Part shown: positions 2,476-24,820 of the stretch, in pieces
How the letters are laid out: each line of letters opens with the position of its first letter
Numbering within the stretch: the stretch's first letter is position 1
The notes under the pieces: generated by a model
Database searches by the model: none
What the model saw: only the letters and a program-made list of their open reading frames with translations
Told to the model about the DNA's origin: nothing
Source: Campylobacteraceae bacterium
Lineage (GTDB): Bacteria; Campylobacterota; Campylobacteria; Campylobacterales; Sulfurovaceae
NCBI GenBank assembly: GCA_027023325.1
Contig: JALVVQ010000257.1
Span: forward strand, 1 to 30,262
Length of the DNA: 30,262 nucleotides
Direction of reading: 5' to 3'
Position numbers and translations under genes: made by a program

Positions 2476-3034
2476 GATTACGCATTTTAGACTGGAGTCA
2501 TTGGAAGATCCGCAGTTTATCTCTGCCTCCTTGGCGCACTATGAGCAAAATGGTATTGCCAAAGATTGGGAAGTAGTAGAGGCACATGATAGTGTGGCGA
2601 TACTCATCTACCATAAAGGGCTTGATAGTTTTGTGCTGGTAAAGCAGTTTCGCCCTGCTGTCTATCTGCATAATGAGGATGGCATGACAGTAGAGCTTTG
2701 TGCTGGATTGGTTGACAAGGAGTTGACACTGGCGCAGATCGCCAAAGAGGAGATAGAAGAGGAGTGTGGTTTTGATGTTCCTGTGGAGAGTCTGACGCGG
2801 ATCACTTCGTTTTATACCTCTGTGGGCTTTGCGGGGAGTAAGCAGGCGATGTACTATGCGGAAGTGGATGAGACGATGCGGGTATCAGAGGGAGGAGGGA
2901 TCGATACGGAGTTGATCGAGGTGCTGACACTGCCTGTGTCAGAGGCAAAGGCATTTATCCATGATGAGACGATTGCCAAGACACCGGGCTTGATGTTTGC
3001 GTTTATGTGGTGGCTTGATAGAATTAGGAGTTAG
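2465..3034 (+). CDS. NUDIX hydrolase, nucleoside-diphosphate-sugar pyrophosphatase type (YffH/NudK-like)
   Basis: LVKQFRP motif and Nudix box ELCAGLVDK...AKEEIEEECG. Overlaps the upstream gene by 11 nt. Confidence 0.85.
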   Translation: MKSEITHFRLESLEDPQFISASLAHYEQNGIAKDWEVVEAHDSVAILIYHKGLDSFVLVKQFRPAVYLHNEDGMTVELCAGLVDKELTLAQIAKEEIEEECGFDVPVESLTRITSFYTSVGFAGSKQAMYYAEVDETMRVSEGGGIDTELIEVLTLPVSEAKAFIHDETIAKTPGLMFAFMWWLDRIRS

Positions 3035-5886: not shown

Positions 5887-6891
5887 ATGGCATTTATAAA
5901 AATAAACAAAGAAAATTTCTTTCACAATCTTAACCAAATTGTACTAAAAGTCGGTTCCATTGACAAGGTGGATGTAGTCCTCAAAGACAATGCCTATGGG
6001 CATGGACTAGAGATCATAGCAGCGCTCTCGCAGGAGTTTGGCATCAAACAAGCTGTGGTAATAAGCAGTGAAGAGGCGATGCAGGCAACCCCTTATTTTG
6101 ATCATATCCTTGTGCTCAACGGTACGCCTGTGGTGGACGAGAAGCTCTCTTTTGCAATTACAGATATGCGAGCACTGGAAGCTGTGGACAGTGGTGTGCA
6201 GATTGAGCTCAAGGTAGATACCGGGATGCATCGCAATGGTATCGCAATGGGGGACATAGAGAAGGCTCTAAAAATCATCAAGCTGCGAAACCTCCACCTG
6301 ATAGGTGTGATGACCCACTTCAGAAGTGCAGATATGCTGGGAAGCGAACTCTATTGGCAGCAGAAAAACTTTGAAATGGTCAAAAAAAAGGTGAGGGAGT
6401 CCCAGTGCGGTGAAGTGCGCTTCCATAGCCACAACTCTGCAGCAATCCTCAGAAGTAAGCACTTCGATGAAGATATCGCCAGGGCAGGGATTGCGATCTA
6501 TGGATGTAATGAGCTACCGGAAGCCTATGATATGGTAGAGCTCAAACCGGTACTTTCTCTTTGGGCACATCGTGCCTCTACCAGAGTGCTCAAAGAGGGA
6601 CAGAGGGTAGGCTATGGCGGTGACTTTACAGCAACAGAGCAGATGAAGGTTTCTACCTATGATCTAGGTTATGGAGATGGGTGGAGACGAGGTGAGAGTG
6701 CTCACCCTTATCTCACAGCGGAGGGGCTACCTATCCTAGGGCGTGTGTCGATGGATTTTATCTCTTTGGCGACGGACAAAGAGGAAGTATGCATCATGCA
6801 TGATGTCCAAGAGGCTGCCAGGCATTTTGGTACGATTAGCTATGAGATGACCACCATGCTCTCCCCTTCGATACAAAGGGTCGTAGTTTAG
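5887..6891 (+). CDS. alr: Alanine racemase
   Basis: PLP lysine motif [10 protein letters not shown], plus [24 protein letters not shown] and GRVSMD. Confidence 0.93.
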
Positions 6892-7910
6892 GCCGCTTTG
6901 CCGCTCATGCCCATAAGCTTGCCCCTAGAGATAATCTCCAGAGGAATGTCTCTTTGTGTGACCTTCTCGCAATATCCGATAGACTGCTTGAAGAGTGTTG
7001 CATCCTCTTCGCTGGAAACCACCAGCAGATCAGCCCCACTGTCCAGCGCATCCAGCAGCATGGTACCCATCTTGAGATAGGCCATTTTGGGGTTGGTCTG
7101 GACGATAGTTTGTCCGGCAAGTTTGTTGGCCTTATCAAAGCGAATCGCTTGGGCACCTTTGCTCTCTATCTGCGCCAAAGTACTCTCCATGATGCCCTGG
7201 GACATTTCATCCATACCAGCATAGAAGGCAACATGTCTGCCTTCCAATGTGGTGACTTCTGAGGCCTTATACTTTCTGCTAAACAGAGGCTTATAACGGA
7301 TTTTTGGAGATTTTGCCATCTCTCGAAGTTTTGCAATGCTGACTTCATGATTCTCAGCACGGAAGAGATTGTTTTCGTATTCACATTCCCAGAGTCCTTC
7401 ATGATGGCTGCTTACTGCCTCCAGAATCTCTGCTTTGTGTGGATTGTTCTCCAGAATCAATTTATGTGCCAGTATCAGAATGGCATCTCCAATATATTGA
7501 TTATTGTAATGGTAGGTCTCCGAGGCATAATGAAGAGGATAGAGCCGCTCATAATAAGCCTTGTCCTCCTCTGTGGCATAGGGAGCCAGCAGGGAAAAAC
7601 TTTCCATAAAATCTTCATCATTGATGATCAGGCCTTTGGTGGAGCGATAGGCAGAGACAGGATCAATCTGTAGTGAGGTACCGAATCTATTGGTGATTTC
7701 CTTGACGCTTTGGCTACCATCAAGAACCAGACCATTGATTCTAAAATAAAGTCTCTCTTTGGGATAGGCGAACTGAAAGGCTTTTTCTTTGATGAGAGGC
7801 AACAGTTCTTTGACCGCCATACCCTCGTCGGCTTGGATTGCAAAGAGCTTGTAGTAGGGAAGATAATCCAATTGTGCATTAAAAAAATAGGCTTTAATAT
7901 GTAGGGTCAT
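6888..7910 (-). CDS. Conserved Campylobacterota protein resembling a degenerate Sdh/Frd Fe-S subunit N-terminus plus an HdrB-like C-terminus (DUF5644-like)
   Basis: [12 protein letters not shown] at the N-terminus. The C-terminal [18 protein letters not shown] segment resembles the CCG-domain tail. Family assignment is from recall. Confidence 0.5.
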
Positions 7911-8009: not shown

Positions 8010-8507
8010 CTAATGTGCTACTTTGTTTCTCAAGAACAGTTCTCTCTTTTTGATGCCAAGCAGAGGATCTTTGGTGAGATTAGGGTAGGTAGCATGGATA
8101 CCCTTGCCATCATCCCCATGGCATCCACCACAGATGCTGGTATAAAAGCCTACGGCATCATCAGGGTAGGGTTGTTTGCATTTTCTTCCGGAAAGTGTCA
8201 TGACATAGCAGGCGATCTTTTCCGCCTCCTCGCGAGGTGCATAGCCACCTTCCATCACCTCATTCTTTTTGAATTGCAATTGTGTGGAGCCGTGATTGAT
8301 GACATCCATGATATACTGCTTGAGAGTCGTATCGCTTCGGATGAGAGCAAGCTCCTCTTTGGTGTGTGAGGTACGATGTGTTTGAATATGTTTTGCGTAT
8401 GTGTTGTTGGATTTTGTTTTTGATTGTTTCTTGTCCTGCTGCTTGGCATTGTATGCGGCATAGCCAAAGATGAGCAGCAGGACAAAGAAAGGAGTGAGTT
8501 TTTGCAT
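8010..8507 (-). CDS. Membrane-anchored monoheme c-type cytochrome, CcoP-like
   Basis: N-terminal hydrophobic anchor and a single CxxCH (CGGCH) followed by GDDGKG...YPNLT. Confidence 0.7.
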   Translation of the reverse strand: MQKLTPFFVLLLIFGYAAYNAKQQDKKQSKTKSNNTYAKHIQTHRTSHTKEELALIRSDTTLKQYIMDVINHGSTQLQFKKNEVMEGGYAPREEAEKIACYVMTLSGRKCKQPYPDDAVGFYTSICGGCHGDDGKGIHATYPNLTKDPLLGIKKRELFLRNKVAH

Positions 8508-8927: not shown

Positions 8928-9371
8928 ATGAAAAAAGTGATACTATCGATACTCTTATGGGTGAGTCTCAGCTTCAGTGTAGAGGCGCAAGAGATCAGAG
9001 CAGATGTGATCAAGGTTACGGTGACGGGGAAGAGTGCTTACCGATTCAATGTGACACTAGAGAGTGATGAGACAGGATGCCAGCAGTATGCCGACTGGTG
9101 GGAAGTATTGGATGCCCAAGGCACGCTTCTCTACCGTCGCATCCTTTTTCATTCTCACCCTGATGATCAGCCCTTTACCCGCTCTGGTGGCAATATTGCG
9201 CTGAAGCCTGAGCAAAAAGTCTATGTGCGCGGACATATGAATAAACTGGGATATGTAGGAGATGTGTTTGAGGGGTCTGTCTCTTTTGGTTTTAAAAAAG
9301 CAGTGAAGCCACCTTTATTCCCCAAAGCTTTGGAAAAGCAGGCACCGCTGCCTGATGGGTGTGCTTTTTAG
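8928..9371 (+). CDS. Secreted hypothetical protein
   Basis: Sec signal peptide ending VEA-Q, AAGGAG RBS and TATAAT at 8903-8908. Contains GCQQYADWWEV...RRILFHSHPDDQPFTRSG, but no function was recognised. Confidence 0.75.
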   Translation: MKKVILSILLWVSLSFSVEAQEIRADVIKVTVTGKSAYRFNVTLESDETGCQQYADWWEVLDAQGTLLYRRILFHSHPDDQPFTRSGGNIALKPEQKVYVRGHMNKLGYVGDVFEGSVSFGFKKAVKPPLFPKALEKQAPLPDGCAF

Positions 9372-13129: not shown

Positions 13130-14929
13130 TTATTGAATCGTCTTAAGCTGCTTTGTAAACTGCTCAGGCGGAATAAATCCTGTGAAAAACTTATCACTCA
13201 ATGCCTTGCCTTTGCTATCAAAAAAGAGAATATTGGGCGCGCCAAAAAGACCATATTTTTTCAAAATAGCTTGCTCTTCAGGGGTATTTTTAGTGATGTC
13301 GATCTGGATGAACTTGAATCGCTCTAGCTCTTTTTTGACAGTGGGATCAGGGAAGGTGATATTTTCCAGTTCGGTACAGGCAGCACATCCCTCTTTGCCA
13401 ATATCGACAACCACTGGTTTGCCTGCCTTGTTCGCCTCTGCAACTTCTGTGAGGAGTCTTTCGACTGAGTAGCCTTGTCTGACGGATCGATCTTCTATCA
13501 CCTCTGTGGTGGCAACACCGCTTTTGGTGCCTGTAAATCTGTCTAGTGGGTGCAGTAAGGAGTGTGAGCCACTGACGGCACCCATGAAGAGCATGGCACC
13601 ATAAAGAAGCATCACCAATCCAGAAAGGGTAATCAATTTGGAAAGACCACTGCGTTTGTCACTGTTGTCAAAGACACCGATATACACTGCAGAGCCCATC
13701 AGTAGCAGAGATGCCAACAGCAGCGTAAGGCTAGGAGGCAATAGCCTTTCGACCATATAAAGTGCCATCATAAGCATGAGTACACCAAAGATCTGTGAGA
13801 TACGCATCATCCAGCCGCCGGGCTTGGGCATGAATTTGCCTGCACCCAGACCTACCAACAGTAGTGGTACTCCCATGCCTATACTCATTACAAAGAGTGC
13901 CAGCCCACCAAGGAATGCATCCCCAGTCTGAGAGATAAAGAGGATAGCCCCACCCAGCGGTGGCGCGACACAGGGGCCTACAATCAGCGCAGAGAGCACT
14001 CCCATGATAGCAGTGCCGAGGATACCTTTGCCCTGGGCATTGTCACTGGCAGAGCTGAGTTTGGATTGCCATGAGGCAGGCAGGCCGATCTCGAAAAAGC
14101 CGAAGAGGGAAAATGCCAGAGCTACGAACATGGCGGAAAAGAGGATAATGACCCAGGGCTTTGCCATGGCTGCCTGAATATCTGCGCCCACGAGACCAGC
14201 AATGACGCCCACCACCGTATAAGCCAAAGCCATGGCAAGCACATAGATAAGGGAGGTGAAAAAGGCTTTTCCGGGACTGGGCTTCTCCTCTTTGCCTGCC
14301 TGGGAAATAATGATGGAAGAAAGAATGGGGATCATAGGGAAGATGCAGGGTGTCAATGCCAAAAAGAGCCCAAAGACAAAGAAAAGCATAAGGATAAAGA
14401 AGGGATTTTCTTTGACCAGTACATCAGCGATCTTGCCAGTGTTTCCCTCTTGTGTCAGCCTGGATATCTTGGCAAAAAAGCTTTCAGGTTCTCCTTCATA
14501 GGCAAATGTGAACTTTCTCACCTGCGGCTGGTAGCAGATGCCACCATCAGAACAGCCAGTCATTTCGATAGCGAGGGTGTAGTCTTTGTTGACCTTGCTC
14601 TCTATCTCCTTGAGGGGAATGTCTACGGAGATATCATGGTAAATATCAAACTCCCCGTGTTTTTCAGTGGGTGGAAGCGTAGGTTTGAGTTCGGTTTGTA
14701 TGGGGTCAGTAATTTTGAAATGCAGGTCTTTGCCATAGATATAGATCTTGTCGCCCAGTGTGATCTTTGTTTTGATCTTGTCGCCCTCTTTGACGGCGCT
14801 GGCTTTGAAAGCCTCAGCAGGGGAGAGAAAACTTTGCTTGGGAAGCTTGAGCCCTCCGAATCCTTCCGCATGGCTTATGGTAGTAGCTAAAAGTATCGCA
14901 CACAGTAAAAAAATCTTCTTGAATGTCAT
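13130..14929 (-). CDS. dsbD: Thiol:disulfide interchange protein DsbD
   Basis: Alpha domain CSDGGICY, TM domain LTPCIFPMIPI and VGPCVAPPL, gamma domain GCAACTELE. Confidence 0.93.
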   Translation of the reverse strand: MTFKKIFLLCAILLATTISHAEGFGGLKLPKQSFLSPAEAFKASAVKEGDKIKTKITLGDKIYIYGKDLHFKITDPIQTELKPTLPPTEKHGEFDIYHDISVDIPLKEIESKVNKDYTLAIEMTGCSDGGICYQPQVRKFTFAYEGEPESFFAKISRLTQEGNTGKIADVLVKENPFFILMLFFVFGLFLALTPCIFPMIPILSSIIISQAGKEEKPSPGKAFFTSLIYVLAMALAYTVVGVIAGLVGADIQAAMAKPWVIILFSAMFVALAFSLFGFFEIGLPASWQSKLSSASDNAQGKGILGTAIMGVLSALIVGPCVAPPLGGAILFISQTGDAFLGGLALFVMSIGMGVPLLLVGLGAGKFMPKPGGWMMRISQIFGVLMLMMALYMVERLLPPSLTLLLASLLLMGSAVYIGVFDNSDKRSGLSKLITLSGLVMLLYGAMLFMGAVSGSHSLLHPLDRFTGTKSGVATTEVIEDRSVRQGYSVERLLTEVAEANKAGKPVVVDIGKEGCAACTELENITFPDPTVKKELERFKFIQIDITKNTPEEQAILKKYGLFGAPNILFFDSKGKALSDKFFTGFIPPEQFTKQLKTIQ

Positions 14930-15001
14930 CTTTGTACTCTCTTTTAAAGGTTGTTAGTGTAAAACTATATCCAAGAATGATAAACAATAACAGTGTAGTA
15001 A

Positions 15002-16501
15002 ATGTGCAAAGGGCAAGAGATGAATCAAAAAGAGATATCGTGGTATGCATGGGGCACAGATCCCTTTGATAAGGCAAAACAGGAAGAGAAGCCACTGTTG
15101 CTTTTTATTGGTTACAGGGGATGTTACTGGTGTGAGCAGATGGAGCGGGAATCTTTCGTTAATGATATAACGGTCTCTTTGGTAGAGGAGCATTGTATCG
15201 TGGTGCGTGTCGATAGCCATGAACGACCAGATATTGGTAGGCATTTTCACCGTGTATTTACACAGATGACTGGACGCGAAGCAAACTATCCGTTGGTGAT
15301 TTTCCTCTCGTCTGACAAGGTACCGCTGTATGCTGCAAGCTATCTGCCTGAGTCGAGCAGGGACGGAATGATGGGGCTAGGGGAGACTGTGACGCTGGTT
15401 GCGCAAAAATACCAGCAGCAAAGGGCACTGCTTCTGGAGAAGGGTCAAGAGATTCTAGATCTGCTACAGCCATCAAAGCAAAGTATCCAAGCAACCACAC
15501 TGCATGGTGGTATCGTCTCTGTCATTTCTGAGCAGATCAAAGTGCTTCATGACAGTGAGCATGGAGGGTTTGGAGAGAAGCCAAAATTTCCCAGACACTC
15601 TCTGTTGATGCTGGCACTGGATAGTTACAAGGAGACCAAAGATCCTGAAATTGCTGCCTTGCTTCGGCATACTTTGGATGCACTGACCAACAAGGGATTG
15701 CATGACAGAGAGGAAGGTGGATTTCATCGTTACTGTATGGACAAGGCATGGCAGGAGCCGCAGAGAGGGAAAATGCTCTATGACAATGCCTTGATGAGTG
15801 AGACACTGCTATGGGCATCGACACGGCTAGAAGAAGAACAATACGCCGCCATAGCACTAGAGACAGTGGAATTTATACGAAATAAACTGATGCTGGATGG
15901 GTGTTTCTGTGCTTTTTATGACGAAGGTGTGGTGAAGGATGAGAGAATAGTTGTCTCATGGAATGCTATGGCGATCAAAGCCTTTTTAATGGCTGGAAAG
16001 TGGGACAGGGTCTACAGACAAATGGGCATTGCTTCACTCTCCAAGTTGCTGGAGTTTGGGATGAAAGGAGGGGTACTGTACCACAGCTTTATCCGAGGAG
16101 AAGCACCCGCGACAGAGGCATTTTTGGAGGATTATGCCTATGTGGCTGAGGTACTGATCGTGGCATATGAAGAGACCGGAGAGGAGCACTATTTGGTCAA
16201 GGCTTCAGAGCTGATCAACGAGGCACTCAAGCAGTTTTTTAATCAAGGACAATGGTGCTATGCCAACAAAGAGGTGGTATTGCCTGCAGATACGGTCGAC
16301 GGAGACTATCCTGCTGCACTCTCTGTGATGGGTGCTGTCCTGCAAAAGGCTACGAAGCTTATCGATCCGGCGTATGAGAAGTTTTTGCAGCGTACGCTGG
16401 AGATACACTCCTATGAATTAATGAGACAGCCTGTCTCTATGCCTGCATTGGCAAGGACAGCGATGCAGAGCATACGCCCACAAGAGAAAATACAAATGTA
16501 A
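15002..16501 (+). CDS. Thioredoxin-domain protein of the DUF255/YyaL (SSP411-like) family, shortened; start may be the ATG at 15020
   Basis: WYAWG..., CYWCEQMERESF, VDSHERPDI, GGFGEKPKFP, GGFHRYC and KMLYDNAL, plus FLEDYAY. Confidence 0.75.
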   Translation: MCKGQEMNQKEISWYAWGTDPFDKAKQEEKPLLLFIGYRGCYWCEQMERESFVNDITVSLVEEHCIVVRVDSHERPDIGRHFHRVFTQMTGREANYPLVIFLSSDKVPLYAASYLPESSRDGMMGLGETVTLVAQKYQQQRALLLEKGQEILDLLQPSKQSIQATTLHGGIVSVISEQIKVLHDSEHGGFGEKPKFPRHSLLMLALDSYKETKDPEIAALLRHTLDALTNKGLHDREEGGFHRYCMDKAWQEPQRGKMLYDNALMSETLLWASTRLEEEQYAAIALETVEFIRNKLMLDGCFCAFYDEGVVKDERIVVSWNAMAIKAFLMAGKWDRVYRQMGIASLSKLLEFGMKGGVLYHSFIRGEAPATEAFLEDYAYVAEVLIVAYEETGEEHYLVKASELINEALKQFFNQGQWCYANKEVVLPADTVDGDYPAALSVMGAVLQKATKLIDPAYEKFLQRTLEIHSYELMRQPVSMPALARTAMQSIRPQEKIQM

Positions 16502-16509
16502 AGTAACAC

Positions 16510-16538
16510 TTGACACTTTATGATAAAAATGCTATACT
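16510..16538 (+). promoter_or_regulatory. Sigma70 promoter TTGACA-N17-TATACT (TG-extended) with a TTTAT-G-ATAAA dyad in the spacer
   Basis: -35 at 16510-16515, -10 at 16533-16538 and dyad at 16517-16527. AAGGAG RBS follows. Confidence 0.7.
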
Positions 16539-16568
16539 TTCATACTTTCCATACAAAAGGAGCATGGC

Positions 16569-17231
16569 ATGGCATTGAAAATGAAAGCGCTTTCCGCGCA
16601 GAGCGGAGAGAACAAATCAACCATACTGTTTTATATCAAAGAGGGATTGCTTCCAGCACCCTCCAAGCCCAAACCCAATGTGCATCTCTATGATGAAAGC
16701 TGCGTAGAGATCATAAAGTTCATCAAATACCTCCAGCATCATTTTGCCTATACCATCGCAGATATCAAACATATCTTTGAGCAGACGCCTTTGGATCTGG
16801 ATGGGAGTTTTGAGATGATGGTGAGCGCACTTGAGATCGCCACCGTAGGAAAAAATCCTGTATGGTATACCAAAGAAGCCTTTCTTAAAGAGAGTGGGCT
16901 GGAGGAGGAGACCTTGGATACCTATATCGATAGAGGGTATCTCTTCCAAAGAAAACAGGGGTTCAGTTCTGCGGAGCTTGAGATGGTAGGCATCTTGCAA
17001 AATCTTAGTACGCTTGGACTTGAGAGCGCACTGATAGACCAGTATGTGCAGAGTGCCAAGCAGATTGCTATGCTGGAGAGTGAGGCAGGTGCTAGGATGT
17101 TTGATACGATTGAAAAGGAGTCAACGGCACATTATGAGATGCTTTTTGACATGGTACTCAAGCTCAAGCCCTATATCTACAATATGCATACTGTTTCACA
17201 GTATTATCATGACAAAAGGAGCCAATCATGA
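16569..17231 (+). CDS. MerR family transcriptional regulator
   Basis: N-terminal MerR HTH (MKALSAQSGENKSTILFYIKEGLLP). A second HTH-like segment is present (FLKESGLEEETLDTYIDRGYL). Confidence 0.8.
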   Translation: MALKMKALSAQSGENKSTILFYIKEGLLPAPSKPKPNVHLYDESCVEIIKFIKYLQHHFAYTIADIKHIFEQTPLDLDGSFEMMVSALEIATVGKNPVWYTKEAFLKESGLEEETLDTYIDRGYLFQRKQGFSSAELEMVGILQNLSTLGLESALIDQYVQSAKQIAMLESEAGARMFDTIEKESTAHYEMLFDMVLKLKPYIYNMHTVSQYYHDKRSQS

Positions 17232-20200
17232 AAACACTCTTCCGCATCGCAGGGTTTACCCCTTATATATTGATCATCTTTCTCAATGCAATGACAGATC
17301 TGGGACACAAAATTATCCTACAAAATACGATCTTTAAGGCCTATGACGGCTCTGAGCTGATCGTGCTGACTGCGATAGTCAATGCCTTGATTCTGTTGCC
17401 GTTTATCTTTCTCTTTTCACCCTCTGGCTATATCGCTGACAAGTATCCCAAAACCAAAGTAATCGAGTATGCAGCACTGCTGGCGATAGGTATCACGGTA
17501 CTGATACTGATCAGTTACTACATGGGCTGGTTCTGGCTCGCCTTTGGGTTGACTTTTGTGCTGGCGGCGCAGAGTGCGGTCTATTCACCTGCCAAGTATG
17601 GGCTCATCAAAGAGATGGTAGGCAATGACAACCTTGCCTCTGCCAACGCACTGGTACAGGCAGTCACCATCATCTCTATACTTGCAGGTGCGGTGATCTA
17701 CTCACTGCTCTTTGAGAAGTTTTTGGGAGACAGAACGATACTCCCTCATGAGATACTACCGTATGTGGCACCGCTTGGCTACCTGCTTATCGCTGGAAGT
17801 ATCGTAGAGTACCTGCTTGCAAGACGGCTGGTGGGTGCGAAACAAAGCGAAGACAGTACCGTCAAATTTGAAGCAAAAAAGTATAAAAACCTTGGCTATC
17901 TCAAAGAGAATCTCACACTCCTCAAAAGCAATGAAACCGTATGGCTCAGTATCATCGGGCTGAGTATCTTCTGGGGGATCTCTCAGGTGGTTGTGGCTAT
18001 TTTCGGAGAGTATCTCAAGGGAGAGCTTGGTGTCACCGATACGGTGGTAGCACAGGGACTTTTAGCACTGTCTGGTGTGGGTATTATCGTAGGGTCTTTG
18101 TTGGCTGGAAGATTTAGCCGTCGCTATATCGAGACAGGGATCATTCCTCTAGGGGCTCTGGGTGTGTCACTCTCAGTCTATCTACTTCCTTCGCTTCACA
18201 GTCAGCTTGCTCTGGGTGTGGATCTTTTTGCTTTTGGACTCTTCGCAGGGCTCTTTATCGTACCACTCAATGCGCTGATTCAGTTTGCCACGCCGACACA
18301 TATCCTAGGGAAAATGCTTGCTGGCAACAACTTTGTCCAGAGTGTATCGATGTTTCTGTTTCTGGTGGTTACGGCACTGTTTGGCTACTTTGAGATATCA
18401 AGCAGGACACTGTTTTATCTCGTGGCGACCATTGCCTTTGTTGGGATGCTCTATACCTTTGTCAAGCTCCCGCAGTCGCTGGTGCGCTATCTTGTCAAGA
18501 TGCTCTTTCGCTTTCGATACCGTATCGAGGTCAAAGGACTCGAGCATATCAAAGCAGAGGGCAGAGGGGTACTACTGCTGGGTAATCATGTCTCGTTTCT
18601 CGATTGGGCGATGTTACAAATTGCCTACCCAAAGCAGATCCGCTTTGTAATGGACAGAACCTACTATGAAAAGTGGTATCTGAAGCCATTTTTTAATTTC
18701 TTTGGTGTGATCCCTATCTCTACCAGAGGAAGTAAAACAGCATTGGCAAAGGTGAGCGAAGCCTTGGAGAATGGTGATACCGTAGCACTCTTTCCAGAGG
18801 GGCACCTCTCTAGAAATGGTCATTTAGGCGAGTTCAAGAAAGGCTTTCAGGTCGCAGCCAAAGAGGTGGAGAATGCAGTGATCGTGCCTTTTTATCTCAG
18901 AGGACTCTGGGAGGATAACTTCTCTCATGCATCTGGGAAAATGAAGCGAAATAGCGCGAAGGATATCACGGTCAGTTTTGGTGAGATGATGGATATCTAT
19001 AGTACCCCTGTGGAGGTCAAAAAATCAGTCTTTGATCTCTCTATCTCTTCCTGGCAGGTGTACACAAAGGAACTACCCAGTATCCAAAAAGCATGGCTAC
19101 AGAGCGCCAAGGAATCAGGAGGCAAGCTCTGCATGGCAGATTCGACTGGGCTAGAACTCTCCAACCATAAGTTTGTCACAGGGACACTGCTTATCGCAAA
19201 CAGGCTGAAAAAGCCTCTCGCGCATACGCAAAATGTTGGACTTCTCTTGCCCACCTCAGTAGGGGGATCCATGGGAAACATGGCACTGCTCACACTGGGA
19301 AAAACGGTGGTCAATCTCAACTACTCCAGTGGTACACAGAGTTTGTTGCATGCGGTGGATATCGCACAGATAGAGACTGTCATTGCCTCCAAGCAGTTTG
19401 TGACCAGACTGAAGGCCAAAGGCTTCGATCTTTCAGAGGTGCTGGTGCAGGTGGAGGTAATCTATCTGGAGGATATCAAGGAACAGATTGGCAAGTTAGC
19501 ATCTCTGCGGATGCTGCTTAGTGTGAAGCTACTTCCGCTAGATATCCTGAGTCGCATCTATCTCAAGGAGCGCAGCCCAGAGGATACTGCAGCGATACTT
19601 TTCTCCAGTGGAAGCGAAGGCACACCCAAGGGGATTGAGCTGACCCATCGCAATATCATGGGTAACATCAAGCAGACCACCACACTGATCAATCCGACAG
19701 ATGAGGATGTGATGCTGGGCACCTTGCCGATCTTTCACTCCTTTGGCTTGACAGTGACGACCCTGCTGCCACTGGTCGAGGGGATTCCTGTGGCGTGCCA
19801 TCCTGATCCGACAGATGGCTTTGGGATAGGCAAGATGGCAGCCAAGTATGAGGCGACCATGCTCTTTGCGACGGCGACCTTCTTCCGACTCTATACCCGC
19901 AACCGCAAGCTTCATCCACTCATGTTCTCACACTTGAGGATGGTGATCGCAGGTGCCGAGAAGCTGCCTGCTGAGATCAGAGAGGCGTTTCGGGCGAAGT
20001 TTGGCAAAGAGATCTACGAGGGGTATGGTGCGACAGAGACCACACCTGTGGCTGGGGTCAATATCCCTGATGTCCTGATGATGGATGACTGGAAGGTGCA
20101 AAAGGGCAACAAGGCAGGCACGATAGGGCTGCCTCTGCCAGGAAGCAGCTTCCGTATCGTAGATCCTGAGAGCTTCGAAGAGCTGCCTGTAGGGGAGGAT

Positions 20201-20680
20201 GGCATGATCCTGATCGGCGGCACCCAGATCATGAAAGGTTACATCGGTGACCCTGACAAGACCGCTGCGGTGATCAGAGAGATTGATGGCATCCGCTGGT
20301 ATGTGACGGGTGACAAGGGGCATCTGGATGAGGATGGCTTCTTGACGATTGTGGATCGCTATAGCCGTTTTGCCAAAGTGGCTGGAGAGATGGTGAGTCT
20401 GGGGCTGGTAGAGAGTGAGATCGTCAAGGTGCTTTCAGAGGCAGACCAGATCGCTGTCGCTGCCCTGCCGGACGAGAAGAAGGGAGAGAAGTTGGTACTG
20501 CTACTGGAGGGAGAGATGACACTAGAGACACTCAAAGCAGAGATCAAAACGCTAGAGATGAATCCCCTCTTTGTACCCAGCGAATACTACAAGGTGGAGG
20601 CATTGCCTAAACTAGGCACAGGAAAAGCAGATTTCAAGGGTGCCAAAAAATTAGCACAGGAGTTGAGTGATGGAGAATAA
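17228..20680 (+). CDS. aas: Trifunctional MFS (LplT-like) / acyl-ACP:lysophospholipid acyltransferase / acyl-ACP synthetase (Aas)
   Basis: About 12 TM helices with QSAVYSPAKYG. PlsC motifs NHVSFLD and FPEG. AMP-binding motifs FSSGSEGTPKG, YEGYGATE and TGDKG. Confidence 0.92.
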   Translation: MKTLFRIAGFTPYILIIFLNAMTDLGHKIILQNTIFKAYDGSELIVLTAIVNALILLPFIFLFSPSGYIADKYPKTKVIEYAALLAIGITVLILISYYMGWFWLAFGLTFVLAAQSAVYSPAKYGLIKEMVGNDNLASANALVQAVTIISILAGAVIYSLLFEKFLGDRTILPHEILPYVAPLGYLLIAGSIVEYLLARRLVGAKQSEDSTVKFEAKKYKNLGYLKENLTLLKSNETVWLSIIGLSIFWGISQVVVAIFGEYLKGELGVTDTVVAQGLLALSGVGIIVGSLLAGRFSRRYIETGIIPLGALGVSLSVYLLPSLHSQLALGVDLFAFGLFAGLFIVPLNALIQFATPTHILGKMLAGNNFVQSVSMFLFLVVTALFGYFEISSRTLFYLVATIAFVGMLYTFVKLPQSLVRYLVKMLFRFRYRIEVKGLEHIKAEGRGVLLLGNHVSFLDWAMLQIAYPKQIRFVMDRTYYEKWYLKPFFNFFGVIPISTRGSKTALAKVSEALENGDTVALFPEGHLSRNGHLGEFKKGFQVAAKEVENAVIVPFYLRGLWEDNFSHASGKMKRNSAKDITVSFGEMMDIYSTPVEVKKSVFDLSISSWQVYTKELPSIQKAWLQSAKESGGKLCMADSTGLELSNHKFVTGTLLIANRLKKPLAHTQNVGLLLPTSVGGSMGNMALLTLGKTVVNLNYSSGTQSLLHAVDIAQIETVIASKQFVTRLKAKGFDLSEVLVQVEVIYLEDIKEQIGKLASLRMLLSVKLLPLDILSRIYLKERSPEDTAAILFSSGSEGTPKGIELTHRNIMGNIKQTTTLINPTDEDVMLGTLPIFHSFGLTVTTLLPLVEGIPVACHPDPTDGFGIGKMAAKYEATMLFATATFFRLYTRNRKLHPLMFSHLRMVIAGAEKLPAEIREAFRAKFGKEIYEGYGATETTPVAGVNIPDVLMMDDWKVQKGNKAGTIGLPLPGSSFRIVDPESFEELPVGEDGMILIGGTQIMKGYIGDPDKTAAVIREIDGIRWYVTGDKGHLDEDGFLTIVDRYSRFAKVAGEMVSLGLVESEIVKVLSEADQIAVAALPDEKKGEKLVLLLEGEMTLETLKAEIKTLEMNPLFVPSEYYKVEALPKLGTGKADFKGAKKLAQELSDGE

Positions 20681-20984
20681 GGAAGAGACATTGGAAGAGA
20701 GAACTTATCAGGGGTCACTGCTGTCAGTAATACACTTTCTGTCTGGGATTGCTGCGGCAGCGTATTCGATATTTTTGGTTACGAACTATAACCGTAATAT
20801 GCCTTGGGGTAACCTATTGACTTTCGGTATCCTCTTCTTGTATCTGTGGGGCTTGTATGCATCTGTACCGCGCTACAAAAAAGGAAGTATGGGCACAGCA
20901 AGGGGCATCTTTCATGTGATAGGAGGATTATCTTTGGTATTTTTTCTCAATATTTTTGTCTGCATGAATAGTTCAAGATTTTAA
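20667..20984 (+). CDS. Small hypothetical membrane protein (about 3 TM)
   Basis: Overlaps aas by 14 nt with a GGAG RBS, stops 2 nt before the next ATG and has three hydrophobic stretches. Confidence 0.7.
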   Translation: MMENKEETLEERTYQGSLLSVIHFLSGIAAAAYSIFLVTNYNRNMPWGNLLTFGILFLYLWGLYASVPRYKKGSMGTARGIFHVIGGLSLVFFLNIFVCMNSSRF

Positions 20985-20986
20985 AA

Positions 20987-21670
20987 ATGGCTATTCATAT
21001 CCTCTTTGATTTGCTCTCTTATCTGGCGGCAGGTGCGTTTTCTTGGAGGTATTTCAAGGATCCAAACCCTGTGATCATAGAGGAAGATATGCGTTGGTAT
21101 TACTACACTGTGTTGGTCGTTGGGTTTGTCTTGGGCTCTGTGGGTCTGAGTATACTCAACAACTATCTCTCACTAGAGGGACAGGTGATCTTGGGAAAAT
21201 CTATACTGGGAGCACTTTTCGGTGGGATACTTTTCTCTGAGACATTTAAGTACTTTATGGGCATCAAGGGTTCTACGGGGGCATATTTTGTCCCCTCTCT
21301 GGCTATCGGTATTGCGATTGGCAGAATCGGATGCTTTTTGGCAGGGCTTGAGGATTATACCTATGGTGTGGAGACGACTCTGCCGTGGGGTGTAGACTTT
21401 GGGGATGGGGTAGTGCGGCATCCTGTGCAACTCTATGAGAGTTTGGCGATGTTTGGATTTTTTGGGTTTGCCTTGTGGCGATACAGGGTAGACAGAGCAG
21501 GATTTGGGCGCACTATGTTTTACCAGTTTGTGCTTTGGTATGCCCTGCAGAGATTTGCCTGGGAGCAACTCAAGCCCTATGAGAATATCGTGTTGGGTAT
21601 CAATCTATTTGGCTGGGTTTGCTTGGTACTGATAGGGTATGCAGTGGTTTATCTATACAGAAATAAATAA
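20987..21670 (+). CDS. Divergent prolipoprotein diacylglyceryl transferase (Lgt)-family membrane protein
   Basis: GRIGCFLAG (residues 112-120), YG..TTLPWG, HPVQLYE (145-151) and QRFAWEQLK. GKSILG stands where Lgt has GMSFHGG. Short at 227 aa. Confidence 0.8.
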   Translation: MAIHILFDLLSYLAAGAFSWRYFKDPNPVIIEEDMRWYYYTVLVVGFVLGSVGLSILNNYLSLEGQVILGKSILGALFGGILFSETFKYFMGIKGSTGAYFVPSLAIGIAIGRIGCFLAGLEDYTYGVETTLPWGVDFGDGVVRHPVQLYESLAMFGFFGFALWRYRVDRAGFGRTMFYQFVLWYALQRFAWEQLKPYENIVLGINLFGWVCLVLIGYAVVYLYRNK

Positions 21671-21681
21671 AGGAAAGTATC

Positions 21682-23088
21682 ATGGCATTTTATGCACAAC
21701 ATTATGATCTGTTTTTGACAGCGACACAGAGTTTTTGTCAACAGTGTGACAACATCAATAGATTGGTTGACACCCATGTGGTGACCAAGGACAATGAGGT
21801 ATTCCTGCGTAAATTCTGTCCCACTTGTGGGGAGTCGATGGTAAAGATTTCCACCAATTATGACTACTACAAGCAGTGCGAAGCCTACCTCAAACAGCCG
21901 GACTTGCCAGAGAAGTCCTTGACACAGGTGCTTCGTGGTTGTCCCTATGACTGCGGGGTCTGTCCGCAGCACCAAAACCATCCCTGTCTGGCACTGTTCA
22001 ATGTCACAGATGAGTGCAATATGAAGTGCAATATCTGCTACTACGCAGCAGAGCCCGGACTGGGTAACCATCGCAGTATGGAGGAGATCTCACAGATGCT
22101 CGATACCCTGCTGGAGACCGAAAGTGAGCCTGACCTTATTCAAGTCACCGGAGGAGAGCCTACGACACACCCTCAGATCATGGAGATATTGCAGTTTCTC
22201 AAAAAGTCTCCAGTCAGGCATCTCATGCTCAACACCAATGGCATCCGTATCGCAGAAGATGAGGCGTTTGTCAAGGCACTTAAGAAGCTGGGCGCTGGGT
22301 TTGAGGTCTACTTACAGTTTGACTCTCTACAGAAAGAGGTGTTACAGGATATCCGAGCCAGAGATATGCGCGAGGTGAGACGCAAGGCATTGGCAATGCT
22401 GGAGAAGCATAATGTCTCTACTACGATCGTCTCAGTCATCAAAAAAGGACTGAATGACAAAGAGATCCCGCAGATCTTGGCATTCTCCCGCAAGTACCGC
22501 TGTATTCGTGGTGTGGTATTCCAGCCTGTCCAAGAGGTGGGGCGTATCAAAGCAGAAGGGGATTTCCGTATTACGCTGAGTGAGATCAGGCAGATCGTTG
22601 TCGAAGATGAGGGAAATCCTTTCACCGCAGCAGATATGATTCCGCTTCCCTGCGACCCACACAAGATCGGTGTAGGCTATGCTGCCAAGACCATGGGTAT
22701 AGATAAAGAGGGTGCTCCCTATGCCAACCTCATGCCAGTCACCGGACAGATTCCCAAAGAGATGATTACTGAGCAGAGAGGCACGGTGGCCTTCGAGCAA
22801 GACAGAGCATTTGTCAAGACGATTGTTGAGACTGTGAGCCTTGATACGGCTATGGGAGAGAGTATTCTCAAGGATAAGATCAAGACCAAGCTCTTCTGCT
22901 GCTGGCCGAGTTTTTTGAGTCCTGCAGATATGGGATATGAGAATGTCTATCGTATCGTTATTATGGAGTTCAGCGATGTGTATAATTTCGACACGACCAA
23001 CATCAAAAGAGAGTGTAACTTTATGATAGAGCCCAATCGGGTGATACCGTTTAGTACTTACAATATGGGGCTGTCGCGCTCTCAGTAG
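21682..23088 (+). CDS. Radical SAM protein, COG1964 / MJ0619 / Tes-like architecture
   Basis: C112xxxC116xxC119, VTGGEPT and LNTNG. Extra motifs are C19xxC22...C46xxC49 and C87PYDC91GVC94PQH97. AAGGA RBS. Confidence 0.85.
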   Translation: MAFYAQHYDLFLTATQSFCQQCDNINRLVDTHVVTKDNEVFLRKFCPTCGESMVKISTNYDYYKQCEAYLKQPDLPEKSLTQVLRGCPYDCGVCPQHQNHPCLALFNVTDECNMKCNICYYAAEPGLGNHRSMEEISQMLDTLLETESEPDLIQVTGGEPTTHPQIMEILQFLKKSPVRHLMLNTNGIRIAEDEAFVKALKKLGAGFEVYLQFDSLQKEVLQDIRARDMREVRRKALAMLEKHNVSTTIVSVIKKGLNDKEIPQILAFSRKYRCIRGVVFQPVQEVGRIKAEGDFRITLSEIRQIVVEDEGNPFTAADMIPLPCDPHKIGVGYAAKTMGIDKEGAPYANLMPVTGQIPKEMITEQRGTVAFEQDRAFVKTIVETVSLDTAMGESILKDKIKTKLFCCWPSFLSPADMGYENVYRIVIMEFSDVYNFDTTNIKRECNFMIEPNRVIPFSTYNMGLSRSQ

Positions 23089-23804
23089 AGCACCCGTGCC
23101 AGATAGAGTCCCTGTGGAGGTGCCACTCCTCTACTGTGGATTGTTGTGCGTGATAGTTGCTCTTTGAGCTGGGTAAGCGTCAGCTCTTCATTGGCAACCT
23201 TGATGGCAAAATCAATCATCATTCGTACCTGTGCCCGCAGAAAACCATTGGCTTCGAAGTAGAGGTAGTGGTATCTGCCTCTTTGTATGTGGTAGGCTTT
23301 GTGTATCTGTCGGATATTGTTTTTGGTCTCAGAACCGGTTTTAAGAAAATAGCTAAAATCATGTTCTCCAACAAAGCATGTCAATGCCTCTTCGAGTTTC
23401 TCACTATTGCTCAAAGGGAGAGAAGAGACAAACTCTTTTTCAAAAAGTGTTGGCTCTGTGGACTTGATGCAGTAGCGATAGATGCGTCTTTTGGCAGAAA
23501 ATCTGGCGTGAAAGTCTTGCTCTACTATACTGATATGTTTGAAGTATACATCCTTGAGTTTGCCATTGAGATGACTTTTTAACTTATTGAGATCCTCCCA
23601 GTAGGGAGGCAGGTCAAAATGGATCACCTGCCCTGTGGCATGGACACCAGCATCGGTGCGACCCGAGCCAGTGAGAGGAGAGGTGATACCCAAGCTCTCC
23701 AATGCTTCTTCGATGGTGGTGGTGATGGTCTGCTTGGTACTGGTCTGCTTTTGAAATCCCTGAAATTGGGTACCGTTATAAGCAATGACCGCTTTGACAC
23801 GCAT
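23082..23804 (-). CDS. truA: tRNA pseudouridine(38-40) synthase
   Basis: YNGTQFQGFQ, GSGRTDAGVHA, FHARFSA, ANGFLRAQVR and APPQGLYL. Confidence 0.95.
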   Translation of the reverse strand: MRVKAVIAYNGTQFQGFQKQTSTKQTITTTIEEALESLGITSPLTGSGRTDAGVHATGQVIHFDLPPYWEDLNKLKSHLNGKLKDVYFKHISIVEQDFHARFSAKRRIYRYCIKSTEPTLFEKEFVSSLPLSNSEKLEEALTCFVGEHDFSYFLKTGSETKNNIRQIHKAYHIQRGRYHYLYFEANGFLRAQVRMMIDFAIKVANEELTLTQLKEQLSRTTIHSRGVAPPQGLYLARVLY

Positions 23805-24820
23805 CAGAAATCTGCCTTGGCTTTTTTGGAGAAAAACAGTATGCTACTCCCGAGAAAGAATAAGGAGATAGCCAGCAGCAGTAGCGGCGTCCCCTCTTTT
23901 CTAAGCAGAGAGGCCGCGAGGTATATCGTTACTATCATAGTGAAACTGACAAGGTAGGTACGGGGTTTCTGGTATCTTGGATTGATGACAGAGAAGGCGA
24001 TGAGTATGCCAAGGACGAGCAGAGGAGAGAGAGAAAGAAAAATATTGTAGACAAACAGTGCCATGTCGCTTCGGCTCGTGCCTATATGACTCCAACCTCG
24101 GTTGAGCCATGTTGTATTGACAGCATGGCGTGCGTAATTATAGATGCGTAGCTGTGTATAGCTGATCGACTCTACCCTATTGGGTAAAAATGTATCCCCT
24201 GTTCCCTGATAGAGATTCAGAGAAAATTGACTGTTGTTGTGTTCTATCTCCCCTTTATTGGCAATGATCAGTACCTGTTTCTCTTTATCATCTGTCGTGA
24301 AGAGTACTATGTCATGATAGTCTTCCCCCTGTTTATCTCCCAAAAAGATGATATAGTCTCCAAATTTTTGCCCTAGACGGTTGGGTGCGATGTTGAGTCT
24401 TGCTTCGTCCGTTTTTTTACTCTTAAATAGTGTGTAGGCTGTGGTACTCTGTGGAATCGTATGTAAAGAAAGAATTAACATCAGTGAAGCGAAGAGTAGT
24501 GCTGGAAGTGTAAAGATCCTAAGGAGTCTGGTAGGCGTCAATCCAAAGGAGAAGAGAGCGATTAGTTCATTGTCCTCAGAGAGCTTGGTGAGCGTCACCG
24601 TAACTGCAGCAATAAATGAGAGTGGAAGTGTATAGAAGAGAATATCAGGAAGAAAAAATCCAAAAAGCGTCAAGAACTCTCCGGCATTCAATGAAATTTT
24701 CTGAGAGAGTATAGATATTCTAATGATATAGACAATAGAAAGTATGGAGAAAAATGGTAGAAAAATAAGAAGATACTGTTTGCCCAAATGTGAGAGGATA
24801 AAGCCCCTGACTCTACCCAT
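23804..24820 (-). CDS. LPS export ABC transporter permease, LptF/LptG family
   Basis: YjgP/YjgQ layout: TLPLSF, LSEDNELIALFSFG, a periplasmic beta-jellyroll region and three C-terminal TMs. Confidence 0.8.
   Translation of the reverse strand: MGRVRGFILSHLGKQYLLIFLPFFSILSIVYIIRISILSQKISLNAGEFLTLFGFFLPDILFYTLPLSFIAAVTVTLTKLSEDNELIALFSFGLTPTRLLRIFTLPALLFASLMLILSLHTIPQSTTAYTLFKSKKTDEARLNIAPNRLGQKFGDYIIFLGDKQGEDYHDIVLFTTDDKEKQVLIIANKGEIEHNNSQFSLNLYQGTGDTFLPNRVESISYTQLRIYNYARHAVNTTWLNRGWSHIGTSRSDMALFVYNIFLSLSPLLVLGILIAFSVINPRYQKPRTYLVSFTMIVTIYLAASLLRKEGTPLLLLAISLFFLGSSILFFSKKAKADF

Follow-up and report, generated by a model that had tools for sequence, protein, structure and literature searches.

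A tetraether-synthase-like radical SAM enzyme encoded beside an Lgt paralogue in a Campylobacteraceae genome suggests a membrane module for lipid or protein–lipid modification

Branched tetraether lipids underpin palaeotemperature proxies, and bacterial homologues of the tetraether synthase Tes serve as genetic markers for the producers of these lipids. The locus described here, from a Campylobacteraceae bacterium (assembly GCA_027023325.1, contig JALVVQ010000257.1), raises the question of whether such a homologue makes tetraether lipids at all. The window, i.e. the whole stretch of DNA analysed, comprises 30,262 nt, and all features discussed below lie on its forward strand. The gene in question (21682..23088) starts with ATG, is preceded at a distance of about 7 nt by the ribosome-binding site AGGAAA and encodes a radical SAM (RS) enzyme of 468 aa, assigned to the Tes superfamily by its ORF, by Pfam and by sequence and fold matches in the PDB. 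A sequence-only reading had taken it for a bacterial member of the Tes family and had suspected a rearranged C-terminal cluster with different chemistry.

The cysteine motifs named in that reading (C19xxC22...C46xxC49, C87...H97, C112/C116/C119, PC324DPH, FC406C407WP and KREC445NF) are all present at exactly these residues. Pfam assigned a Zn_ribbon_HMPTM domain to residues 11–57 and a Radical_SAM domain to residues 107–268. The N-terminal zinc-ribbon/rubredoxin-like domain (21712..21852; PF23545 and alignment to 7TOL) carries the Cys4 site C19, C22, C46 and C49, followed by C87-x3-C91-x2-C94-x2-H97, i.e. C87-P-Y-D-C91-G-V-C94-P-Q-H97 (21940..21972), and by the SAM cluster motif C112-x3-C116-x2-C119 (22015..22038) inside the RS core (22000–22485). 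The motifs are not a product of chance: in the close clade (64–100 % identity), sampled as 111 full-length cluster representatives, C19, C22, C46, C49, C87, C91, C94, H97, C112, C116, C119, C324, C407 and C445 were each found in 111/111 and C406 and H327 in 110/111, and two additional cysteines, C66 and C102, were likewise invariant (111/111).

The top sequence match in the PDB was the archaeal synthase MJ0619/GDGT-MAS (E 1.5e-48; profile E 1e-133), with 26 % identity. A fold search with the AF2 model (pLDDT 87.5, pTM 0.88) gave the same answer, as Foldseek ranked 7TOM/7TOL first (TMq 0.82, TMt 0.77, around 490 aligned columns, all four domains), the runners-up being generic RS cores with TM 0.35–0.38. 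Based on model and alignment, the predicted protein shows the four-domain tetraether-synthase fold, including the SAM cluster and, on the N-terminal side, one [4Fe-4S] and one Cys4 mononuclear site. It has in common with GDGT-MAS (MJ0619; 7TOL, 7TOM; IPR034474) the rubredoxin-like, N-cluster, RS core and C-terminal domains, as well as a mononuclear metal site, the CPxDCGxCPxH [4Fe-4S]N motif, the CX3CX2C SAM cluster and a C-terminal beta-hairpin, so that the N-terminal sites postulated from the sequence were borne out as aligned and conserved. C87, C91, C94 and H97 correspond to C73, C77, C80 and the histidine of GDGT-MAS, while the mononuclear site, which has four cysteines here, reads C9-x2-C12-x20-C33-x2-H36 in GDGT-MAS (both GDGT-MAS coordination motifs as given in PMC9433317). 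C49 is invariant in the close clade, yet the position is His in most other branches. The enzyme also lacks a 20-residue insert found after the RS core in GDGT-MAS.

The whole-protein fold match would fit a true bacterial Tes counterpart, i.e. a synthase of membrane-spanning or macrocyclic lipids, which would couple the tails of bulk ester phospholipids to give diabolic-acid-like or brGDGT-precursor lipids; the neighbouring Lgt paralogue described below would then do no more than provide a dock at the membrane and present lipids. This is the role proposed by Zeng et al. for bacterial Tes homologues (PMC8941075), and GDGT-MAS binds E. coli phospholipids (PMC9433317). We consider such a counterpart unlikely here, however, and the distribution of Tes homologues already argues against it: they were absent from the diabolic-acid producers examined by Sahonero-Canavesi et al. 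and present in only 3/14 iso-diabolic-acid-producing acidobacterial genomes (PMC13159169). The sole bacterial tail-coupling enzyme shown experimentally is Mss (Sahonero-Canavesi 2022), a radical SAM enzyme of Thermotoga/Thermoanaerobacter that acts on acyl tails of bacterial lipids, which we compared by description alone and which according to its discoverers is only remotely related to Tes (PMC13159169).

A second argument against bulk-lipid coupling comes from the C-terminal domain. In GDGT-MAS, the cluster carrying the C–S intermediate, [4Fe-4S]C, is held by three cysteines and Met439, and Tyr459 is strictly conserved among 1,000 archaeal homologues (PMC9433317). From the alignment we infer that the three cysteine ligands are C338, C455 and C470. 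In the enzyme studied here, these are replaced by K328, E444 and S458, and Tyr459 by Met448; the hairpin fold is retained (E444-C445 ... S458, KREC445NF and IPFS458TYN; 23011..23055, from alignment and model), with C445 (GDGT-MAS C456) as its sole remaining cysteine. The C-terminus IPFSTYN had been singled out earlier against PFC in many homologues; this contrast was correct, since GDGT-MAS reads IPFCTYN and the column holds Cys in Tes, TrsS and HCCC sequences, and the suspected rearrangement agrees with all three substitutions. At columns 328, 444 and 458, Cys was present in 100 % of the rows of Tes, of the TrsS clade and of HCCC, and in 0 % of those of the query, fusion-sister and ECS clades. 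Within the close clade, position 328 is K in 110/111, 444 is E in 111/111 and 458 is S in 111/111; position 448, i.e. the Tyr459 equivalent, is M in 101, I in seven and F in three of the 111 sequences, and the Met439 equivalent is retained in only 69/111.

Relative to GDGT-MAS, C66, C102, C324 and C406/C407 are invariant extras. C102 (21985..21987), invariant in the branch, is Ile in GDGT-MAS, and C324 (PLPC-DPH; 22651..22653), also invariant, is Ser. Together with C445, both were invariant in a 62-sequence alignment, and a column comparison showed this set to be absent from the Tes rows. C406-C407 (FCCWP; 22897..22902) is conserved in no clade other than that of the query and its fusion-bearing sister, and lies in an amphipathic stretch that is modelled with low confidence (pLDDT <50 for residues 386–414). 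The pattern suggests that C102, C324, C406/C407 and C445 probably form a second cysteine set binding a relocated auxiliary cluster. Such a cluster (C102, C324, C407 and C445), placed beside the lost site, could in principle take on the storage of a radical, which speaks in favour of a Tes-like coupling of bulk lipids after all, in spite of the loss of Tyr459 and all Tes-type cluster cysteines.

Comparison with curated models places the enzyme within the Tes superfamily, but indicates that it is not Tes. The Tes model NF045702 aligned to residues 15–324 only and scored 228.5 bits against a curated equivalog cut-off of 450, which two Tes reference sequences pass with 638 and 481 bits. The best-scoring curated model was that of TrsS (NF045646), a radical SAM (seleno)protein on whose function a literature search returned nothing relevant; this match is full-length (residues 14–463) and C102 is common to both, but the score of 260 bits stays below the cut-off of 490 that five TrsS references pass. 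In genuine TrsS sequences, which cluster beside Tes, the C-terminal cysteines of Tes type are retained along with the Met; the single TrsS neighbourhood examined encodes a methyltransferase and a C_GCAxxG_C_C protein, without Lgt. The scores below cut-off, the separate clade described below and the missing of the three inferred [4Fe-4S]C cysteines therefore all speak against Tes as well as TrsS.

Several relatives are labelled by JGI as ‘7,8-dihydro-6-hydroxymethylpterin dimethyltransferase’, and there are weak MoaA matches over the RS core, both of which would suit an enzyme unconnected with lipids, i.e. a pterin methyltransferase (HMPTM) or a MoaA-like cofactor enzyme. We regard this as extremely improbable. 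For MJ0619, structural and assay data have overturned the HMPTM assignment (PMC9433317), and we discarded the pterin methylase annotation of the family as superseded. The MoaA model reached 72.5 bits against a cut-off of 284 over the generic RS core only, no SPASM maturase model exceeded 49 bits (cut-offs 250–850), and no SPASM or twitch motif was found in the enzyme by profile models; on these scores and on the fold, it does not group with MoaA/SPASM families. In addition, a membrane and lipid context runs throughout the related loci.

In a quick-search tree, unrooted and with SH-aLRT support only, the Tes and TrsS references were separated from the half containing the query by a branch with 97 % support, and the query clade was nested in a clade with 100 % support that also holds LGT fusions. 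Of 40 related loci, 38 carry an Lgt-like gene upstream, on the same strand and no further than about 3 kb away. For each of four divergent relatives (P0129 among them), a gene of the LGT family was found no more than 2 kb away, while three members sampled from the Tes/TrsS half were without an Lgt neighbour. In a sample of 301 Campylobacterota genomes, the orthologue and the Lgt paralogue were found adjacent to each other in the same three and in none of the other 298. The two are even joined in other phyla (Planctomycetota, Verrucomicrobiota and others), where LGT + Zn-ribbon + radical SAM fusions, with the radical SAM part at the Lgt C-terminus, form 55 distinct clusters at 90 % identity that are 48–100 % identical to the query fusion. 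These fusions, annotated by NCBI as ‘prolipoprotein diacylglyceryl transferase family protein’, are single polypeptides of 656–825 aa, in contrast to the separate adjacent genes here; their radical SAM parts are 36–40 % identical to the query, also lack the Tes-type cysteines and have C324, C407 and C445. The radical SAM branch is inseparable from an Lgt paralogue, a partner that is obligatory for it, unlike for GDGT-MAS. A literature search for a link between Lgt and radical SAM enzymes returned nothing relevant, and no paper describing the module was found. We also considered whether the Lgt association is defined by the missing Tes-type cluster and rejected this, as the basal P0129 retains the cysteines and has an Lgt neighbour.

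In the window, the Lgt paralogue (20987..21670; 227 aa, seven helices, Pfam LGT 68.8 bits) ends 11 nt 5′ of the radical SAM gene. The genome has its housekeeping lgt on another contig (211.7 bits), which makes the paralogue a second copy; with the Lgt model TIGR00544 the latter scored 27.6 bits against a cut-off of 118.9. Since a PDB sequence search with it returned nothing at E ≤ 1, the Lgt fold was confirmed by fold search, in which E. coli Lgt 5AZB was the single significant PDB match (TM 0.66) of an AF2 model with pLDDT 93.9. The paralogue has the Lgt motifs GR-x-G and RHP-x-QLYE, and R143, R239 and E243 of E. coli Lgt (5AZB/5AZC; PF01790) correspond to R113, R144 and E151, which are invariant or nearly so in alignments of the paralogues; Lys71 is conserved among them too. 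H103 and N146 are replaced by F78 and C116, respectively, and the periplasmic head is far smaller than in E. coli Lgt (227 versus 291 aa for the whole protein). Across the paralogues, the H103 position is F/I/V/L/A, and the N146 position is Cys in 32/42 or Ala in 9/42. Diacylglyceryl transfer by the paralogue therefore stays putative, as the H103 and N146 equivalents are gone; a role of C116 as essential catalytic nucleophile was dismissed, given the Ala in 9/42 sequences.

A candidate for the acceptor of a lipid is encoded directly 5′ of the Lgt paralogue, where an ORF opening with GTG at 20667 and with an ATG at 20670 encodes a small membrane protein with three helices and about 104 aa (20670..20984). 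It ends in ...NIFVC98-MNSSRF, with a lipobox-like cysteine where the last helix is predicted to end on the outer side; K/R residues are concentrated in the N-terminus and loop 2, so that by the positive-inside rule this cysteine is predicted to be on the periplasmic face. In 15 related loci, the gene directly 5′ of the Lgt-like one encodes a homologous or analogous small protein, all of these ending in hydrophobic-x-x-C plus 6–13 residues; three divergent modules show the same small-protein design, and in the small proteins of distant modules the cysteine stands 1–9 residues from the C-terminus. On the strength of conserved position and motif, the product may be a substrate or partner of the enzymes, while it could also be a structural subunit. 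In many loci, the cysteine proteins are instead lipoproteins with an N-terminal lipobox (200–240 aa) or proteins with an internal TCGG. Pfam gave only chance-level matches for the intervening lipoproteins and small proteins, and an ESM Atlas look-up of the small protein returned no informative family. The intervening lipoprotein family was sought in the source genome, a 93 %-complete MAG, and none was found; either the lineage is without it or the MAG misses it. A conserved cysteine-bearing protein partner would in any case be left unexplained by a synthase of bulk lipids.

The eukaryotic enzymes of the ICMT/PEMT family methylate C-terminal lipidated cysteines, and some distant modules add a methyltransferase of this family. 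This and the near-terminal position of the cysteine would be expected if the small protein were the precursor of a RiPP-like short lipopeptide, matured by a C–S bond-forming or peptide-maturing enzyme: the cysteine would be lipidated, the C-MNSSRF tail released or trimmed, and a lipid carbon linked to the sulfur or the Cys-proximal peptide modified, with the second cysteine set binding the substrate thiolate as in sactipeptide-type enzymes. A C–S bond is already an intermediate of Tes chemistry, and the loss of the Tes-type cluster cysteines with retention of another set fits as well. The predicted topology, however, puts the cysteine in the periplasm, and as the Fe–S enzyme must be cytoplasmic, its direct action on that cysteine is unlikely. 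Moreover, the N-terminal-lipobox and TCGG proteins of many loci have no C-terminal tails to release, the enzyme is without a SPASM or twitch motif, and no conserved protease or exporter was found in the neighbourhoods of the related loci. Taken together, we judge a lipopeptide pathway of this kind to be quite improbable.

The three genes probably do not stand alone in this genome. A MerR-family regulator (16569..17231; 220 aa, Pfam MerR_1 54 bits) with an HTH at its N-terminus and around 150 C-terminal residues without an assigned domain is followed by an LplT-Aas fusion (17228..20680; 1150 aa, NCBIfam NF006386 1559.6 bits versus a cut-off of 1221), i.e. lysophospholipid transporter, acyltransferase and acyl-ACP synthetase in one chain, whose start is overlapped by the stop of the regulator gene. 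Ahead of the regulator lies a sigma-70-like promoter (16510..16538), TTGACA-17-TATACT with an extended TG, which with 11/12 matches was the top site in a promoter scan of 14900–23900 and is likely the start of a five-gene transcription unit. As the five genes between 16569 and 23088 follow this promoter with overlaps or with gaps of at most 11 nt, the module here appears to be co-transcribed with the MerR regulator and the lysophospholipid-recycling enzyme. A phospholipid-recycling Aas/LplT in the operon would again accord with the coupling of bulk phospholipids. LplT-Aas is located 5′ of the module solely in five of the nine loci without a middle gene, and these are mostly of Sulfurovum type (in one, the MerR gene adjoins Aas too); LplT-Aas is a lineage-specific companion outside the conserved core of the module.

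The distribution of the module is patchy, with the three Campylobacterota genomes mentioned above, and a near-identical module is present in Campylobacterota and Gracilibacteria, which points to transfer between phyla. Gracilibacteria have little lipid biosynthesis, and such a distribution is difficult to reconcile with a synthase of bulk membrane lipids. GC content across the module is 0.46–0.49 and similar to that of the flanks, i.e. composition gives no signal of recent horizontal acquisition. The outcome for the assignment made from the sequence is mixed: membership of the superfamily stands on homology and fold, but a tetraether or membrane-spanning lipid synthase does not, given the cut-offs, the separate clade, the missing cysteines and the Lgt partner.

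Instead, the lost Tes-type cysteines, the Lgt paralogue and the small cysteine protein together suggest an undescribed modification of lipids or of protein-bound lipids. The best reading of the module core is a small cysteine membrane protein or lipoprotein, an Lgt paralogue and a Tes-fold enzyme, and we give an even chance to these forming a conserved membrane module for dedicated lipidation and lipid remodelling, of which the radical SAM enzyme is one component. The Lgt paralogue, with both catalytic arginines kept, would probably take a diacylglyceryl (or similar) group from a phospholipid and attach it to the small protein's cysteine on the outer side of the inner membrane, and its C-terminus would hold the radical SAM enzyme on the cytoplasmic face. 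There, the latter would probably act on an acyl chain, either that of the lipid donor or that of the anchor, by abstracting a hydrogen and remodelling the chain. Its chemistry would have to depart from that of Tes, in which a cluster sulfide templates the coupling. Rather than a bulk tetraether membrane lipid, such a module would yield a small protein or short lipopeptide with a special lipidation. It is conceivable, though we hold it with more doubt than belief, that this amounts to a second bacterial protein-lipidation pathway, in which the radical enzyme links or cyclises the tails by means of the relocated auxiliary cluster, so that, for instance, the anchor becomes macrocyclic or spans the membrane, or a new link, C–S or C–C, arises.

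As this large bacterial branch, with the gene studied here, has lost the inferred Tes catalytic-cluster cysteines and is tied to a lipoprotein-type transferase, evidence is needed before its members are taken for tetraether synthases. If there is indeed a second lipidation pathway, its product would be an undescribed kind of lipid–protein conjugate, and many ‘bacterial Tes homologues’ in environmental surveys would be no markers of tetraether lipids. Should the module lipidate and remodel dedicated small proteins, this would be a new step in bacterial lipoprotein biology; if true, it would also mean a new reaction type for radical SAM lipid chemistry and a natural ‘ligand-swap’ series, from Tes over HCCC to the query branch, for the study of auxiliary clusters.

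The radical SAM gene (21682-23088, + strand) starts at an ATG with AGGAAA ahead of it and encodes a 468-aa protein whose N-terminus is kept among relatives (MAFYAQ, MAHYSK and similar). Pfam places an HMPTM-type zinc ribbon at residues 11-57 and a Radical_SAM domain at 107-268, and all cysteine motifs listed in the sequence-only reading were present in the ORF translation, with their residue numbers unchanged. In an alignment of the close clade, i.e. 111 full-length cluster representatives with 64-100 % identity, C19, C22, C46, C49, C87, C91, C94, H97, C112, C116, C119, C324, C407 and C445 were each found in 111/111 sequences, as were C66 and C102, which that reading had not listed; C406 and H327 were each found in 110/111. 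Since the pattern is invariant or nearly so across these representatives, the alignment indicates that it is under selection and not a product of chance.

The sole strong PDB sequence match was MJ0619 (E 1.5e-48; E 1e-133 by profile), identified as GDGT-MAS in PMC9433317. The AlphaFold2 model of the protein (pLDDT 87.5, pTM 0.88) matched GDGT-MAS structures 7TOM/7TOL with a TM of 0.82 over ~490 columns, while the remaining structures matched it in the generic radical SAM core only (TM 0.35-0.38). In the alignments (PDB chain numbering of GDGT-MAS being native protein + 20), C19, C22, C46 and C49 correspond to C9, C12, C33 and H36, with the His replaced by Cys; C87, C91, C94 and H97 correspond to the [4Fe-4S]N ligands C73, C77, C80 and a His, and C112, C116 and C119 to the SAM cluster.

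Regardless, the protein is not Tes on sequence grounds. The curated Tes model scored 228.5 against a cut-off of 450 and covered only the N-terminal 310 residues, and the TrsS model scored 260 against 490. The same model library was used to label the reference sequences, of which P0234 and P0256 reached the Tes cut-off and P0250, P0204, P0218, P0227 and P0194 the TrsS cut-off. In a quick, unrooted IQ-TREE phylogeny of 102 sequences (SH-aLRT support), a 97 % branch separated the Tes/TrsS references from the half holding our protein, whose clade (100 %) was nested, with seven LGT-fusion proteins, in a larger one of 35 rows, likewise at 100 %. Of the proposal that this is a bacterial member of the tetraether synthase family, the fold and the homology stand, but the protein falls below the Tes cut-off and outside the Tes clade.

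The phylum sample also includes a second paralogue from the Tes superfamily, a distant one that is 31-36 % identical over just the N-terminal 310 residues, in 7/11 genomes of the Campylobacterota family f11 (G070, G131, G144, G160, G191, G214 and G239), in which no Lgt paralogue was matched at E <= 1e-15. Elsewhere, P0161 (L062:4043-4888), a member of the 'HCCC' group that keeps the Tes-type C-terminal cysteines, adjoins a nitrogenase-component-1-like oxidoreductase, and the TrsS protein P0227 (L061:40-1108) adjoins a methyltransferase and a C_GCAxxG_C_C protein. Members of the superfamily evidently take part in several pathways that are unrelated to each other.

The suspected rearrangement of the C-terminal cluster was borne out. 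Positions 328, 444 and 458, which align with GDGT-MAS C338, C455 and C470, were Cys in Tes, the TrsS clade and the large 'HCCC' group in a column-by-column census, whereas the close clade carries K328 (110/111), E444 (111/111) and S458 (111/111). In PMC9433317, [4Fe-4S]C is described as ligated by '3 Cys + Met', with a labile Met439, and the C-S intermediate of Tes chemistry forms on this cluster (review PMC13459092); from the alignments, we infer that C338, C455 and C470, together with Met439, are the only candidates for this ligation. The Met439 equivalent is retained in only 69/111 close-clade sequences and Tyr459 is Met in our protein; the beta-hairpin bearing positions 444 and 458 is still predicted (strands E446-450 and E453-456). 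Another set of cysteines is kept instead, i.e. the invariant C102, C324 and C445, all lacking from Tes in the census, and C406/C407, conserved in the sub-branch of our protein. Being adjacent to position 444 within a beta-strand, C445 should face the opposite side, and therefore this second set probably forms a distinct site neighbouring the lost Tes-type one.

The Lgt paralogue (20987-21670, + strand) ends 11 nt before the radical SAM gene. It scored 68.8 bits with Pfam LGT and only 27.6 with TIGR00544 (cut-off 118.9); the normal lgt of the source genome sits on another contig (211.7 bits). The only significant fold match of its model (pLDDT 93.9) was E. coli Lgt (5AZB, TM 0.66). Equivalents of R143 and E243 of the E. 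coli enzyme are invariant in the paralogues and that of R239 is found in 41/42 sequences, but a hydrophobic residue stands in for H103, and the N146 position carries Cys (32/42) or Ala (9/42); Lys71 is conserved among the paralogues.

We compared 49 related loci from Sulfurovum, Sulfuricurvum, Sulfurospirillum, Nitratifractor, Arcobacteraceae and Gracilibacteria/Peribacteria (the last read with code 25), and, of the 40 whose flanks are long enough, 38 have an Lgt-like gene upstream on the same strand. Among 301 sampled Campylobacterota genomes, the radical SAM orthologue occurs in three, and the Lgt paralogue is confined to exactly those three, adjoining it. LGT-family genes also lie <2 kb from distant relatives (33-42 % identity), and polypeptides that join LGT, a Zn-ribbon and radical SAM in one chain make up 55 separate clusters at 90 % identity, which are 48-100 % identical to the query fusion. 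In the other half of the tree, three members (a TrsS, an 'HCCC' and a basal one) had no such neighbour. A function unrelated to lipids seems extremely improbable. Between the window and Gracilibacteria (L035-L044, L047 and L054), the radical SAM proteins are 62-69 % identical and the Lgt paralogues 33-41 %, suggesting transfer of the module between phyla, with the two genes unequally constrained.

Immediately before the Lgt paralogue, a 104-aa small membrane protein (20670-20984, + strand) ends in NIFVC-MNSSRF, and equivalents ending in hydrophobic-x-x-C plus 6-13 residues occur in 15 related loci; ends in distant modules read VVC-Y, FGFC-MFMINF, FIYC-SLGGR and IAYC-SMTGPVNFH. Crude hydropathy and charge analysis gave three helices with K/R concentrated in the N-terminus and loop 2, and the Cys is therefore predicted to sit where the last helix ends on the outer side. 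The window's lineage lacks a middle gene. In 20 Campylobacterota loci, the Lgt-like gene is separated from the radical SAM gene by one or two genes for lipoproteins with a lipobox (...S[LM]GC[VIM]TK..W.D). This family (200-240 aa, with a later KYHYIF, sometimes in two copies; L009:1313-1981, L024:4658-6001, L033:5336-5992 and 17 other loci) had no Pfam match; it is absent from the window and was not found by one query through the source genome, a fragmented MAG (336 contigs, 93 % complete, 6.5 % contamination) in which absences are weak. Gracilibacteria carry one to four small TCGG-motif proteins in this place, as tandem arrays of membrane proteins with hydrophobic-x-[TS]-C-G-G (L036-L047, e.g. 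L040:3926-5973). As far as the sequences tell, the common denominator of the module is a cysteine right after a membrane helix, the position at which Lgt recognises cysteine.

Some distant modules have extra genes near the radical SAM and Lgt-like pair, i.e. an ICMT/PEMT-family methyltransferase and a DUF4395 protein (L058:5406-6439), or a Sulf_transp-ICMT fusion and an ArsP permease (L060:3978-5408). In eukaryotes, ICMT methylates lipidated C-terminal cysteines, and these genes hint at an enzyme that forms C-S bonds or matures lipopeptides, a reading we consider unlikely.

A promoter-like site (16510-16538, + strand; 11/12 plus extended TG), the closest to consensus in the region, is followed by MerR, LplT-Aas, the small protein, the Lgt paralogue and the radical SAM gene, which overlap or stand <=11 nt apart; convergent truA overlaps the stop of the last. 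In E. coli, Aas-LplT recycles lysophospholipids, including those from lipoprotein N-acylation, which by analogy would fit a lipidation theme. It is not core to the module, since it is limited to 5/9 loci without a middle gene, mostly Sulfurovum-type. The module is flanked by housekeeping genes and GC is uniform. Just upstream of the operon (13130-16501) lies a divergent thiol-redox pair, DsbD (599 aa, - strand) and a thioredoxin-like DUF255 protein (499 aa, + strand); to connect the pair with the small protein's periplasmic Cys would be speculative. Four ORFs of 147-340 aa (2465-3034, 6888-7910, 8010-8507 and 8928-9371) had no Pfam family at E <= 1e-5.

In the literature searched (PMC8941075, PMC9433317 and the review PMC13459092), bacterial Tes homologues are no more than uncharacterised candidate enzymes of brGDGT synthesis, and the searches found no link between them and Lgt. 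A synthase coupling the tails of bulk lipids is a possible but doubtful reading of our protein, though slightly likelier than C-S or lipopeptide chemistry. From the fold, the metal sites that are kept and those that are lost, the linkage or fusion to the Lgt paralogue and the conserved cysteine proteins, as seen in sequences and models, we infer a different role: the Lgt paralogue would transfer a glycerolipid onto the Cys of the small protein at the outer leaflet, and the radical SAM enzyme would lie on the cytoplasmic side, because the C-terminus of E. coli Lgt is cytoplasmic and it is to this end that the enzyme is joined in the fusions. There, the enzyme would remove H from an acyl chain, either of the donor lipid or of the anchor, and then remodel the chain, probably using a relocated auxiliary cluster and not the Tes site. 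For this window, the analysis adds the loss of the Tes-type site in three columns together with an alternative invariant set, the exact co-occurrence of both genes in the phylum sample, and an Aas-MerR operon context.
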